DNA of 64,000 nucleotides from an uncultured delta proteobacterium (lineage in GTDB: Bacteria; Myxococcota_A; Polyangia; Fen-1088), in NCBI GenBank assembly GCA_963737265.1, contig CAVTRY010000013.1, positions 64,001 to 128,000 of the forward strand, given 5' to 3'. Made by a program: the position numbers and the translations under genes. Shown in pieces: positions 47,417-59,942 of this stretch. The notes below the pieces were generated by a model, which was given only the letters and a program-made list of their open reading frames with translations, was not told the origin of the DNA and searched no databases. Each line of letters opens with the position of its first letter. The first letter of the stretch is position 1.

Positions 47417-49117
47417 CTACGTTTGGGCTGTCGGCCGAAGCTGGGTCGCTGTCGTCCACGCCGCCGAAAGAAGGATCACGGCAGCGCAAGCGATGACGTT
47501 GTACCAAAGGAAGCTGACGCTCGTGCGCAGGAAGATGGCAAGGACGACGGCCTCCGAAAGGATGGCTGCCACGAACACCGCGGTTCCCCGCACCCGGCGC
47601 AGGAAAAACGCCACCAGAAAAATTCCCAGTACGGTGCCGTAGAAGAGCGAGCCGAGGATGTTCACGGCCTGGATCAGGTTATCGAGCAGCGAGGCGAAGG
47701 TGGCGAAGGATACGGCCAGCACCCCCCAGACGGCGGTGAAGACCTTCGCGGCGCGGACGTAGTGGGCGTCGGGCGCATCCTTGCGCAAGCTACGCTTGTA
47801 AATGTCGACCACGGTGGTCGATGCGAGCGCGGTCAGCTCGCCGGCCACGGCCGACATAGCGGCGCAGAAGATGACCGCCAGCAGCAGCCCCACCACTCCG
47901 CGCGGTAGGTTGCGCATCACGAAGGACAAGAATACGTAGTCGGCATCCTTGGTCTTGGCGCCGGGCAGCGCGCGGGCGATGACTTGCTTGGCTGTCCGGC
48001 GAATGTCGGCCGAAGTAGCCTCGGCCGCTCGCACGTTCTGTTCGGCGCTGGCGATGGCGGCACTGTCATGCTGGTCGAGGGCTTGGTCGAGGCGCCAGAT
48101 TTCGGCGCGTTTGTGCTCGAAAGCGGCAACGTGGGCCTGTTCGAGCACGTGCAGCTGGCCAGCACTCGGCGTGTTGTGCGCGCGCGAAAGCTCGGACTGG
48201 TTGAAGAAGACCGGCGGCGGATTGAATTGATAGAACATGAAGACCATCACGCCCACAAACAGAATGAGGAACTGCATCGGAATCTTGAGCAGACCGTTGA
48301 ACAGCAACCCGAGGCGACTGGCCGTGATCGAGCGGGCGGCGAGGTAGCGCTGGACCTGGGACTGGTCGGTGCCGAAATAGGCCATAGCCAGGAAGAATCC
48401 GCCGAGCAAGCCAGACCACAAGGTGTAGCGCGCGCTGGGATTGACGGAGAAATCCACCAAGCTCATCTTTCCCAGCGTCCCTGCAATGTGGACGACGTTG
48501 CGAAACGAAATGTCGGGCGGCAAACGCATGACGATGACCACGAATGCGACCACCATCCCGCCCAGCATCACGACCATCTGGTGTTTTTGCGTCTGACTGA
48601 CGGCGCGCGTGCCGCCCGCCACGGTGTACAGAATGACCACCCCGCCCATGGCAAGGCAGGTCAGGTTCAGCGACCAGCCCAGCACCGACGACAGAATAAT
48701 GGCCGGTGCATAGATCGTAATACCCGCGGAAAGACCGCGCTGGAGCAAGAACAGCAACGCCGTCAATTGGCGTGTTTTCAAGTCGAAGCGGCCTTCGAGA
48801 AATTCGTAGGCGGTGTAGACGCGCAACTGGAAATAGCGAGGCACGAATAGAATCGACAGCGCTACCATGGCGAGCGGCAGGCCGAAGTAAATCTGAATGA
48901 AGCGCATCCCGTCGTCGTAGGCCTGGCCGGGCGTGGACAGAAAGGTGACCGCACTGGCCTGGGTGGCCATGACCGACAAGCCGATGGTGTGCCACTTGTC
49001 CTGGTAGCCGCCGCGCAAGTACCCGGCCATGTCCTGCCGGCCGCGTGTTTTCCACAGGCCGTAGCCGACGATAGCGCCGAGCGTCACGAACAGAACCAGC
49101 CAGTCGAGCACGCTCAT
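47417..49117 (-). CDS. Sodium:solute symporter (SSS family)
   Basis: SVMATQASAVTF, TAYEFLEGRF, YTVAGG, YFGTDQSQVQRYL, GLLLAVIFCAAMS. Confidence 0.93.
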   Translation of the reverse strand: MSVLDWLVLFVTLGAIVGYGLWKTRGRQDMAGYLRGGYQDKWHTIGLSVMATQASAVTFLSTPGQAYDDGMRFIQIYFGLPLAMVALSILFVPRYFQLRVYTAYEFLEGRFDLKTRQLTALLFLLQRGLSAGITIYAPAIILSSVLGWSLNLTCLAMGGVVILYTVAGGTRAVSQTQKHQMVVMLGGMVVAFVVIVMRLPPDISFRNVVHIAGTLGKMSLVDFSVNPSARYTLWSGLLGGFFLAMAYFGTDQSQVQRYLAARSITASRLGLLFNGLLKIPMQFLILFVGVMVFMFYQFNPPPVFFNQSELSRAHNTPSAGQLHVLEQAHVAAFEHKRAEIWRLDQALDQHDSAAIASAEQNVRAAEATSADIRRTAKQVIARALPGAKTKDADYVFLSFVMRNLPRGVVGLLLAVIFCAAMSAVAGELTALASTTVVDIYKRSLRKDAPDAHYVRAAKVFTAVWGVLAVSFATFASLLDNLIQAVNILGSLFYGTVLGIFLVAFFLRRVRGTAVFVAAILSEAVVLAIFLRTSVSFLWYNVIACAAVILLSAAWTTATQLRPTAQT

Positions 49118-49251
49118 CGGGAAATCAACGTAACAGCTGTGAAGACGGCGATTTCTGCCGCCAGCGCGGCGACGACGACAATGTAGAGGATCCTCCAACT
49201 CCAGAACGGCGCTGTCGCGTGCAGCTCGCGCCGCTCGGGTTCATCGGGCAT
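49114..49251 (-). CDS. 45-aa single-TM protein coupled to the SSS gene
   Basis: Manual translation MPDEPERRELHATAPFWSWRILYIVVVAALAAEIAVFTAVTLISR*; TGA overlaps the SSS ATG (ATGA). Confidence 0.75.
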   Translation of the reverse strand: MPDEPERRELHATAPFWSWRILYIVVVAALAAEIAVFTAVTLISR

Positions 49252-57195: not shown

Positions 57196-58815
57196 GTGGG
57201 TCGCGCATTCTCCAATTCCTACCTCGCCGGTGAGGACGCGGCACGTGCGTTCTTCGCGCCAGGGTTCCGCGACGGCGAAGTCAGGGTCGCTGCCGCCCGT
57301 CGCGCCAGCGGCCGGTTGGTTTCGTCGGCGTTGCTGGAAGTCCTGGCCGAACAGCAAGAACGCCTTCCCGCCAGCACCGCGCGCCAGGCAAATTGGCAGG
57401 CACTGGCCGGTGGCGGCGCCGCGGTGGTCGCGACCGGCCAGCAGGTGGGGCTCTTTTTGGGGCCGCTCTACGCCTTTTACAAAGCAGCCTCGGCCATCGC
57501 GGTGGCGCGCGCGATCGAGGCCGAGTCGGGCGTCCGCTGCGTTCCGCTCTTCTGGTTGCAAACCGAAGACCACGACTTTACCGAGATAGCGAGTTGCACG
57601 GTGGCCGGCCGCGACGGCGAGCCGGTGCGTTTGGCCTTGCCCGACGAACCGGACGGGCAAGGTCGTGTTTCGGTCGCCTATCGCGTCCTCGGACCCGAGG
57701 TCGCGGAGGCCCTGGGCGCGCTGGCCCGGGCGCTCGACCCCGGTCTCGCGGGCGACGAGGTCTTGCAGCTCTTGCGTGCCTGCTATCAGCCGGGGAAGTC
57801 GCTGGCCGGTGCGTTTGCCTCGGCCCTCGCAACCGTGTTCGCCGACGAGGGCCTGCTCATCCTCGATCCGCGCGACGCGCGCCTGGCCGCGCTGGCCACG
57901 CCCATCTATCGATCCGCACTTGAGGATTCCGAGGCCATCGAACGACGCCTCAAGGAGCGACGGGATGCGCTGGCCATGGCGGGGTTCGACGAGCAAGTGG
58001 CGGTGCGCGAACGAGGCGCGCTGGTGTTCTTCCACCGCGACAGTCCGACCGGCCCGCGCTTTCGCCTTCAGCGCCGGCAAGCGGCGTCAGACTGGGAGCT
58101 GGCGGGCAGCTCGGAAATCATCAGCCACGACGATTTGCTGGCGACGCTGGCGTGCGAGCCGTTGCGCTTCTCCACCTCGGCGCTGCTGCGGCCGATGGTT
58201 CAGGATACCCTGCTGCCCACCGTGGCCTACGTGGGCGGACCGGGCGAAATCAACTACTTTGCCCAGCTTGGGCCGCTCTACCAGCACTTCGGCTTGGCGC
58301 CGCCGCTGCTCGTGCCGCGCGCCCGTTTCCGTTTCATCGACGCGCGCACGCGACGCAGGCTTGGACTGCTCGGGTTGCGGGCGGCCGATCTGTCCGCGCC
58401 CGCCATCGAGGCCCGACTAACCGTCGCGCGTCCGCCCGGCTGTCCCGATCCGGTGGAGCTTCGAGCCCTGGTGGCGAGCCAGATCGCACCTGCCGTGGCG
58501 ACGATAACCAGCGCCGTTGCAGCCGACGAGCACCTTCGCCGCCCGGCCCTGCGCGCGCGCGAAAGCGTTGCCTACCGCCTGGAACGATTGATCGATCGCT
58601 ATGCGCGCACGCTGGTAGAGCGCGACGACAACACCAACCGACGTCTGCATCGTGCGAAGCTCGCGCTCTGTCCAAACGGAGTGCCCCAGGAGCGCTTTTA
58701 TGCTTGGCCATCCTTGGCTGGCCGGCTTGGCGTCGCGCGCTTCAAGCAATTGGTTGGGCAAGCGTTGCAGACCGCCGGGCCATTCTCGACCGACATCCAC
58801 GAGCTCCAAGCATGA
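57196..58815 (+). CDS. bshC: Bacillithiol biosynthesis cysteine-adding enzyme
   Basis: VATGQQVGLFLGPLYAFYKA, FWLQTEDHD, STSALLRP, YVGGPGEINYFAQ, PQER. Confidence 0.93.
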   Translation: MGRAFSNSYLAGEDAARAFFAPGFRDGEVRVAAARRASGRLVSSALLEVLAEQQERLPASTARQANWQALAGGGAAVVATGQQVGLFLGPLYAFYKAASAIAVARAIEAESGVRCVPLFWLQTEDHDFTEIASCTVAGRDGEPVRLALPDEPDGQGRVSVAYRVLGPEVAEALGALARALDPGLAGDEVLQLLRACYQPGKSLAGAFASALATVFADEGLLILDPRDARLAALATPIYRSALEDSEAIERRLKERRDALAMAGFDEQVAVRERGALVFFHRDSPTGPRFRLQRRQAASDWELAGSSEIISHDDLLATLACEPLRFSTSALLRPMVQDTLLPTVAYVGGPGEINYFAQLGPLYQHFGLAPPLLVPRARFRFIDARTRRRLGLLGLRAADLSAPAIEARLTVARPPGCPDPVELRALVASQIAPAVATITSAVAADEHLRRPALRARESVAYRLERLIDRYARTLVERDDNTNRRLHRAKLALCPNGVPQERFYAWPSLAGRLGVARFKQLVGQALQTAGPFSTDIHELQA

Positions 58816-59942
58816 CGCCATCTCGCTCCAGTCTGCGCATCGGCGTCGCGTGTTTTTCCACCTTCGGCGGCAGCGGCGTCATCGCCTCCGAGATCGGCAT
58901 GGCGCTGGGGCGGCGTGGTCACCGCGTGTGCTTTCTCAGCGACAAGCCCCCGGCGCGCTTTGATCTTTCGGCCGCGAATGCTTCCTTTCACGAGGTGGCG
59001 CTGCTCGATTACCCTGTGCTAGCCCATCAGTCCTATGCGCTCGCGCTTACCGCCAAGATGATCGAGGTGGCACGGGCCGAGAAGCTCGATCTCTTTCATC
59101 TCCACTATGCCGTCCCCCACGCGGTCAGCGCGTTTCTGGCCCGGCAAGTGTTGGGCGCCGGTGCGCCGAAGGTCCTGACCACCCTGCACGGAACCGACGT
59201 CACCCAGGTGGGCGCGGATGCACGCTTCCAGCCCCTTACCCAATTCACCGTGCGCATGAGCGACGGCATCACCGCGCCCTCGCGCTGGCTGGCCGAGGAG
59301 GCTTACCGCAACCTCGGCCTTGACGGCGACGTCGTCGAGGTGATCCCCAACTTCGTGGACACGGACAGATTCTGCCCGTCCGCTGCCGCGCCGAAGAATC
59401 CGGCGCTCCCTCGCGTGCTGACCCACACCTCGAACTTCCGGCCGCTCAAACGCCTGGAGGACGTGGTGCGAATTTTCGCCTCGGTGCGGACCCACACTCC
59501 GGCGCGCCTGCAATTGGTGGGTGACGGCCCGGAGCGGCCGCGCATCGAGGCGCTGGTTCATTCCCTCGGCCTGTCCGACTATGTGCGGTTCTTGGGCGAG
59601 CAGGTCAATCTCGTCGAGCTACTGCAAGGGAGCGACGTCTTCCTTTTGCCGAGCAGCACCGAGAGCTTCGGCCTGGCCGCCCTCGAAGCCATGGCCTGCG
59701 GCGTGCCCGTGGTCGCCTCCGACGTCGGCGGCGTATCCGAAGTCGTCAGCAACAGCGAGGTCGGCTTTCTGGCCGGGGTCGGCGACGTGGAGGTCATGGC
59801 CGGCCACGTGATTCGTCTCTTGACTGATGAATCCCTTCACCGTCGCATCTCCCAAGCCGCCCGCCGACGCGCCGAAAGCAAATTCCAATTGGAGCCCGCT
59901 GTCGATCGTTACGAGGCCGCCTTTCGGCGGCTGCTGGCATAG
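58812..59942 (+). CDS. bshA: N-acetyl-alpha-D-glucosaminyl L-malate synthase
   Basis: [60 protein letters not shown] overlap with bshC. Confidence 0.95.

Follow-up and report, generated by a model that had tools for sequence, protein, structure and literature searches.

A candidate extracytoplasmic arm of the BshA pathway: an exported PIG-L hydrolase, a symporter with a probable small subunit and a DUF2911-TPR protein linked to bsh genes

Why is a large hydrolase with a signal peptide encoded next to bshC and bshA, two genes of bacillithiol (BSH) synthesis, when the BshB enzymes of that pathway are small and cytoplasmic? And what are a sodium symporter and a tiny membrane peptide doing beside it? 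Both questions are raised by a stretch of 64,000 nucleotides (hereafter the window) from an uncultured delta proteobacterium placed in Myxococcota_A (assembly GCA_963737265.1, contig CAVTRY010000013.1, positions 64,001 to 128,000). The answer put forward here, to which we give a probability of about one half from sequence and genomic context, is that the hydrolase (of the PIG-L/LmbE family), the peptide, the symporter (of the SSS family) and a DUF2911 protein with tetratricopeptide repeats (TPR) would together form an accessory arm, outside the cytoplasm, of the BshA pathway, that is, of the pathway of N-acetylglucosaminyl-malate (GlcNAc-malate or GlcNAc-Mal). The genes on which the argument turns are the following, in window coordinates:

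47417-49120, minus strand: SSS-family Na+/solute symporter, 567 aa (TIGR00813, PF00474)
49114-49251, minus strand: single-pass membrane peptide, 45 aa, an open reading frame (ORF) coupled to the start of the symporter gene
50853-53471, minus strand: large exported PIG-L/LmbE hydrolase, 872 aa (PF02585)
57196-58815, plus strand: bshC (TIGR03998), its GTG start placed from the model alignment and the sequence
58812-59942, plus strand: bshA (TIGR03999)
62860-63717, minus strand: DUF2911-TPR periplasmic protein (PF11138, with a signal peptide)

Both pathway genes exceed their equivalog cut-offs (bshC with 395 bits on TIGR03998 against 265.8, bshA with 448.5 bits on TIGR03999 against 273.7), and the stop codon of the former overlaps the start codon of the latter in an ATGA at 58812-58815, by which bshA is translationally coupled to bshC. 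The bshC-bshA operon proposed in the first-pass annotation of this DNA is thus upheld. The hydrolase, in turn, matches PF02585 with 59.5 bits (gathering threshold 28.2) over profile positions 1-128 of 129 and carries the motifs AHPDDE and THGHH; in an alignment of 88 sequences, the residues A79-N85 (AHPDDEN), H196, G197 and H199 are invariant. The zinc-binding and catalytic roles of these motif residues are presumed from those of the family, some of them described in passages of a review (PMC5790435). At its N-terminus, a hydrophobic stretch ends in ANA and is followed by AGPPPQ, and 82 of the 88 family members, spread over five phyla, likewise start with a hydrophobic leader that closes on A-x-A and is followed by a conserved mature N-terminus; the six members with no visible signal peptide are truncated gene calls. 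The leader is retained in lineages that lack bshB as well, and on this distribution the idea that the large protein is a cytoplasmic enzyme with a mis-called start was rejected. The exported PIG-L protein of about 850 residues that had been described from the letters of this locus therefore stands, with a family-wide leader.

What kind of PIG-L protein is it? The AlphaFold (AF2) model, built from the 88-row alignment with a mean predicted local distance difference test (pLDDT) of 91.3 and a predicted template modelling score (pTM) of 0.90, consists of a leader helix, the PIG-L domain (about residues 58-310), a helical linker, beta-sandwiches (387-655) and a C-terminal alpha/beta domain (660-872). 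In Foldseek, the model is closest to MshB (1q7t, 1q74 and 4ewl; E from 3e-10 to 1e-8, the best 3.4e-10), followed by TT1542 (E 4e-8), diacetylchitobiose deacetylases and BC1534 (3.4e-7), while STM3548 matches the C-terminal domain; the modelled fold is nearest to MshB and to BshB-type enzymes. The protein departs from the small, single-domain, cytoplasmic form of BshB1 and BshB2 by its 872 aa, its signal peptide and four extra structural regions. Its family comprises at least 8000 clusters, every candidate having been scored; among the matches listed, the members have 816-1011 aa, are 59-89% identical to the window protein and are annotated merely as LmbE/PIG-L deacetylases. Weak or partial matches to the same query occur in 18 Bacteroidota genomes and were left uncounted; 17 of them lie in the C-terminal alpha/beta domain alone, in frames of 228-834 aa, and judging from sequence they would be either that domain in other architectures or very divergent family members.

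The association of the hydrolase with its neighbours was surveyed in 80 loci encoding PIG-L relatives, plus 15 further loci for DUF2911. Of the 71 loci of sufficient length, 62 have a symporter ortholog downstream in the same orientation, 60 of them within 1.2 kb, and the cassette is found in Myxococcota, Bacteroidota, Verrucomicrobiota, Ignavibacteriota and Acidobacteriota, including culturable Bacteroidota (Hymenobacter, Pedobacter and Chitinophaga). The DUF2911 gene of the window (178 bits on PF11138 against a gathering threshold of 27) is the sole such match in its genome and encodes a signal peptide, and 41 of the 80 and 13 of the 15 loci have a DUF2911-TPR homolog close to the cassette. 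Judged from these sequence data, the DUF2911-TPR protein is a fourth conserved member of the module. The three-part system of PIG-L protein, peptide and symporter that had been proposed before is conserved as such, but it overlooked this partner. A sequence search of the PDB with the DUF2911 protein gave 0 hits, and its Foldseek and VIA-align matches, for which the beta-domain was folded together with the rest, are confined to the TPR half. In the Chitinophagales, an 846-aa M14 carboxypeptidase-like protein is encoded immediately upstream of the PIG-L gene in 31 loci (e.g., the neighbourhoods L022:6213-8750 and L046:5597-7333), and a gamma-glutamyltranspeptidase (GGT) gene is near the cassette in 21; this neighbourhood hints, as far as gene content goes, at the periplasmic breakdown of small peptides or thiols, all these loci belonging to one order.

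The symporter scores above its family thresholds (232 bits on TIGR00813 against a cut-off of 184; 125.9 on PF00474 against 22.8), and its nearest solved chains are NIS, SiaT, SMCT1 and SMVT (E from 4e-41 to 2e-36), with vSGLT behind them at 2e-28; the alignment to solved chains is good for the N-terminal half alone, and the window protein has a hydrophilic insert of about 90 aa. Being nearer to carriers of anions and carboxylates than to the SGLTs, it would suit glucosaminyl-malate (GlcN-malate or GlcN-Mal) as a solute. The stop codon of the 45-aa ORF overlaps the symporter start by ATGA, and a hydrophobicity screen detected a small ORF ending at that start in 54 of 57 loci, a few of these ORFs being of a different kind, while a strict pattern picked it out in 21 of 59; both counts are rough. 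Its product has the motif P-P-L-F-x-x-W-x-x-W-Y followed by one hydrophobic transmembrane helix, with W19, Y23 and L30 invariant in 22 sequences, and matches no Pfam or NCBIfam family. That the ORF is spurious was rejected because it is conserved in several phyla and coupled to the symporter start, in agreement with the small transmembrane protein noticed at first. In complex prediction, symporter and peptide together scored 0.82 and the best control 0.00, with contacts agreeing in at least 87% between runs and a partner pLDDT of at least 68; among benchmark cases, 116 of 157 solved complexes and 2 of 215 mismatched pairs attain that mark, counts that hold roughly here, where the alignments were custom-built. 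Since solved complexes of SSS carriers with a single-pass partner exist (SGLT2-MAP17), part of the score may reflect likeness to them. On the modelled evidence, the peptide is probably a small subunit of the symporter.

How, then, is this cassette tied to the bsh genes? Gene order gives a first answer, as the two cluster in at least four arrangements: myxobacterial loci have bshA-bshC or bshA-bshB-bshC divergent from PIG-L-peptide-SSS, one genome (G066) has bshC-bshB-bshA-PIG-L-SSS on a single strand, and four Verrucomicrobiota loci read DUF2911-PIG-L-SSS-(x)-bshB-like-bshA. Because the orders differ in two phyla, the clustering must have arisen more than once. In Bacteroidota, the cassette is not adjacent to bsh genes.

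Co-occurrence gives a second answer. Among 251 genomes of the phylum of the window, whose best-named relatives are Polyangia/Myxococcales metagenome-assembled genomes, 26 have the large PIG-L gene, 25 BshC and 23 BshA; every BshC-positive and every BshA-positive genome is inside the 26, and neither gene is found in any of the 225 PIG-L-negative ones. The three PIG-L-positive genomes with no BshA match are G099, G028 and G111. The contig of G099 ends about 400 nt past bshB; G111 has a divergent PIG-L paralogue (L097, G111:C79:72000-91000; 29% identity) with no symporter neighbour and no BshC or BshA match. The 151 Verrucomicrobiota genomes contain the PIG-L gene in 7, BshA in 8, DUF2911 in 7 and BshC in 1; BshA is present in 7/7 PIG-L-positive genomes and in 1/144 of the others (G325, which alone has BshC), and DUF2911 in exactly those seven. 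Of 151 Bacteroidota genomes, 37 have a near-full-length PIG-L gene and 142 have BshA, which is present in all 37, a co-occurrence that is uninformative alone, since BshA is in 94% of that sample. BshA was also found in 5/5 further PIG-L-positive genomes (one of Thermoanaerobaculia, two of Ignavibacteria, an unclassified one and that of a myxobacterium whose cassette is unlinked). The functional link between PIG-L/SSS and bsh genes suggested in the first-pass annotation fares well in one respect, as the distribution of the cassette is not independent of bsh genes, and needs correction in another: with BshC in none of the seven PIG-L-positive Verrucomicrobiota, the tie is to bshA rather than to bshC.

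Gene identities, export signals, conservation of the four genes and their clustering and co-occurrence with bshA are direct observations. What the enzyme acts on, which reaction it catalyses, which solute is carried and what the DUF2911 protein does are inferred from them, as follows. A zinc-dependent PIG-L hydrolase would be exported and, outside the cytoplasm, would remove the N-acyl group from a GlcNAc- or GlcN-malate compound, this group being the acetyl of GlcNAc-Mal, or the cysteinyl of bacillithiol, of its disulfide or of its S-conjugates, or both. Its product, GlcN-malate, would be carried back into the cell by the Na+ symporter, which the small membrane subunit would stabilise, and there BshC, if present, would turn it into bacillithiol again. 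The compound acted on could stem from export by the cell itself or from the environment. Passages of a 2018 review (PMC5790435) describe deacetylation and conjugate amidase chemistry combined in the known BshB/Bca enzymes, and passages of PMC6282198 give Bacteroidetes, Chlorobi/Ignavibacteriae and Acidobacteria as groups with predicted BSH genes.

Several points weigh against this accessory arm. The PIG-L domain falls far under the NCBIfam cut-offs of all four characterized enzyme types (33 bits against 182.5 on BshB1, TIGR04001; 22.8 against 195.25 on BshB2, TIGR04000; 46 against 277 on Mca, TIGR03446; 30 against 224 on MshB), and the chemistry of enzyme and transporter is predicted from sequence and structure models. 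No symporter gene lies within 10 kb downstream in 9 of the 71 loci. The seven PIG-L-positive Verrucomicrobiota have no BshC, and the five of them that were tested have no second ligase resembling cysteinyl-tRNA synthetase (CysRS) or MshC, with one match per genome, so that such a replacement cysteine ligase was rejected for those five; as currently understood, the returned product cannot feed BSH synthesis there. The module is also dispensable, as 105 of the 142 BshA-positive Bacteroidota do without it, and the counts overstate the number of independent events, possibly few per phylum, because related genomes do not count independently. According to passages of PMC5790435, the occurrence of BSH in the periplasm is not established. 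Finally, we know of no exporter identified for BSH or GlcNAc-Mal.

The rival that survives best, if still an unlikely one, takes the large PIG-L protein as a biosynthetic replacement: in lineages without bshB, including that of the window, it would carry out the deacetylation of GlcNAc-Mal when bacillithiol is made de novo, either by a periplasmic detour (GlcNAc-Mal out, GlcN-Mal back through the symporter) or by a cytoplasmic isoform from an internal start. Eight of the 25 BshC-positive genomes in the phylum, the window's genome among them, have no BshB1-grade gene and keep bshA. In six bshB-less genomes (G009, G034, G052, G094, G109 and G559) the large protein is the sole PF02585 match, and bshA directly follows bshC where relatives have bshC-bshB-bshA; the sole-match status fits an overlapping activity of the large enzyme with bshB. 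On a PIG-L tree made by a quick method from 27 hand-picked rows, with SH-like approximate likelihood ratio (SH-aLRT) support only, the presence of bshB in the operon changes at least twice, and bshB is missing in at least two separate branches. The other 17 BshC-positive genomes nonetheless have a BshB1-grade gene beside bshC together with the module, so that the large enzyme is usually an addition and not a replacement; bshB-less lineages keep the signal peptide too, an exporter for GlcNAc-Mal is again not known, and a non-homologous deacetylase could do the work. Besides, a genome-wide search for bshB1/bshB2, which the first-pass annotation had proposed, returned one other PIG-L gene in the window's genome, on contig C7 (L001, G000:C7:473564-476950), for a protein of about 235 aa that scores 64 bits on BshB1 against 182.5, and four of its five close relatives have one to three other small PIG-L genes; any of these might be the BshB. 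The contig C7 gene lies on the strand opposite to a neighbouring ORF of about 390 aa, and the suspicion that it is a contaminant was not upheld, contig GC content being uniform (0.626-0.652). The absence of a small bshB, noted at first for the window, extends to the whole genome as far as BshB1-grade genes go, but not to the 17 relatives that have both.

A more ambitious version of our own proposal would combine the two, with diderm BSH producers running a periplasmic bacillithiol cycle and, in bshB-less lineages, splitting synthesis across the membrane: GlcNAc-malate or BSH would leave the cytoplasm, PIG-L would deacylate it, the two-subunit symporter would return GlcN-malate to BshC, and the DUF2911-TPR protein would act as a helper in the periplasm. 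As a whole this is speculative and, in our judgement, improbable.

Could the product of the pathway be something other than bacillithiol? The module might serve another BshA-dependent product, e.g., a secreted or envelope-bound derivative of GlcNAc-malate or GlcN-malate, with bshC linked where precursors are shared. The Verrucomicrobiota speak for it, since in them the genes for DUF2911, PIG-L and SSS, a bshB-like gene and bshA form one cluster and the genomes gave no BshC match, and the five tested have one CysRS-like gene each. The genomes behind four of their loci (L083-L086) have bshA together with a BshB1-like gene at 127-132 bits, below the cut-off, no BshC and a single CysRS-like gene; a gene for MsrB (SelR) lies upstream in L085. 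A BshC or BshC-like gene is, by contrast, present in the phylum of the window and in the tested genomes of Ignavibacteriales, Hymenobacter and Thermoanaerobaculia, and the start codons of bshC and the PIG-L gene overlap head-to-head in a relative, which argues for joint control with bshC; we know of no such metabolite either, and rate this explanation as rather improbable, below the replacement. Least likely is an unrelated scavenging of amino sugars, in which GlcNAc compounds derived from chitin or other glycans would be deacetylated and the product imported by the symporter, the bsh linkage being inherited synteny with no shared function. In its favour, diacetylchitobiose deacetylases are among the structural matches, the Bacteroidota cassette is not beside bsh genes, its Chitinophagales loci have the M14 peptidase and GGT as neighbours instead, and near-universal BshA leaves co-occurrence in that phylum of little weight. 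Against it, the clustering with bsh genes arose in different orders in two phyla, and co-occurrence is near-exact where BshA is rare (7/7 against 1/144; 23/26 against 0/225).

The accessory arm thus remains the reading that we prefer, and the history of the locus can be told beside it. In the window, the PIG-L gene and bshC are separated by an inserted block flanked by a repeat:

53402-53580: repeat copy A, with the 5' end of the PIG-L gene (minus strand) and a dead 5' end of bshC (plus strand)
53581-57138: inserted block of about 3.6 kb, absent from relatives L003-L007
53687-55516, plus strand: secreted propeller-like gene, in the block
55117-55647: Cys-rich ORF, antisense to the propeller gene and overlapping its frame
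56078-56638: Gly-rich lipoprotein-like ORF, in the block
about 56780-57040: 3' fragment of a propeller paralogue, in the block
57139-57317: repeat copy A', with the upstream region and the first 122 nt of the functional bshC

Over 160 nt, the segments 53402-53561 and 57139-57298 share 91% identity (spacing 3737), and the alignment stretches the duplication to about 179 bp. Copy A' holds the bshC start (GTG at 57196), and copy A a dead bshC 5' fragment whose opposite strand encodes the first PIG-L codons. In the relatives L003-L007 bshC abuts the PIG-L gene, and in L003 the GTG of bshC and the ATG of the PIG-L gene overlap head-to-head by 13 bp, as in copy A; it follows that the two genes were directly adjacent before the 3.7-kb insertion, and both the 178-bp duplication and the former adjacency reported in the first pass are confirmed. 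A second repeat pair (54940-55146 and 56818-57012), made of the 3' end of the propeller gene and of the paralogue fragment, which keeps its own stop, indicates that the rearrangement took more than one step. The propeller frame extends about 120 codons beyond the point where that fragment stops. Immediately beside copy A, a run of (ATC)8 (53370-53393, minus strand) gives the PIG-L signal peptide a hydrophobic core of eight isoleucines, where a homolog 89% identical to the window protein (P0002) has five; this tract is possibly prone to slippage.

The remaining genes of the neighbourhood are these:

left of the symporter gene: speA
49354-50016, minus strand: LuxR/NarL-type response regulator (PF00072 and PF00196)
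50079-50723, minus strand: CheY-like receiver protein with a long low-complexity N-terminus (PF00072 at residues 99-208)
59993-62878, separating bshA from the DUF2911 gene: genes for an EXLX1-like expansin, for an Nfu-type Fe-S scaffold and for an Mrp/ApbC Fe-S carrier

The two response-regulator genes sit between the PIG-L gene and the peptide/symporter pair, and related loci have no gene at that position; since the peptide comes straight after PIG-L in them, the pair of regulator genes is a local, lineage-specific insertion. All members of the line-up PIG-L, peptide and SSS described at first are therefore present and co-oriented, but two genes that had gone unmentioned intervene. In L003, the DUF2911 gene abuts bshA, with no genes between the two. 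Bacillithiol has been tied to Fe-S cluster assembly in Firmicutes.

Why would an extracytoplasmic arm matter? Hiras 2018 (PMC6282198) counts bacillithiol, by prediction, among the bacterial thiols that are most widespread, and whether BSH or its disulfide (BSSB) is imported or exported is unclear according to passages of the 2018 review (PMC5790435). The module offers named candidates for this transport question in its exported hydrolase and in a transporter that has a new small subunit, and it gives DUF2911 a candidate function. A full-text literature search, with subscription journals outside its coverage, found no paper tying a large PIG-L protein, an SSS symporter or DUF2911 to bacillithiol. 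Two puzzles are exposed as well, namely genomes with bshA and bshC whose sole PIG-L gene is the exported one, and the examined Verrucomicrobiota with bshA and a bshB-like gene and no bshC. Should the periplasmic cycle prove true, it would be the first system to move and turn over bacillithiol, with the gamma-glutamyl cycle as its counterpart.

That counterpart is one of several known systems with which the module can be compared. BshB1 and BshB2 (Bca) of Bacillus and the single BshB of S. aureus share with the window protein the PIG-L/LmbE fold, the zinc motif (H-P-D-D ... H) and the linkage to bshA and bshC; unlike them, it has 872 aa and not about 230, with a signal peptide and about 560 extra residues (helical, beta-sandwich and alpha/beta), and whereas those enzymes are cytoplasmic, it is predicted to be exported and is paired with a symporter (in the 62 of 71 loci given above). 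In mycothiol metabolism, MshB is its best structural match and Mca its best partial match in NCBIfam (46 bits); however, it lies far under both cut-offs (224 and 277, respectively), and its context is that of the BshA pathway. Some SSS carriers work with small single-pass partners, as in SGLT2-MAP17 and in bacterial SSS proteins with partners of the DUF4212/DUF485 type. The window symporter resembles the SGLT2-MAP17 type in being predicted to bind a one-helix peptide, here encoded just upstream, but this peptide differs from the known partners in having no Pfam or NCBIfam family and a motif specific to this cassette. SiaT, NIS, SMCT1 and SMVT, the closest solved relatives of the symporter, are without exception carriers of anions or carboxylates, a class to which GlcN-malate would belong. 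The turnover of glutathione in the periplasm involves gamma-glutamyltranspeptidase and the re-import of the pieces. Its logic is the same, an exported hydrolase cleaving the thiol outside and a transporter recovering the parts, but the likeness is one of analogy alone: the protein families are unrelated, and while glutathione is exported to the periplasm of E. coli, as stated in a passage of PMC5790435, no exporter of BSH is known.

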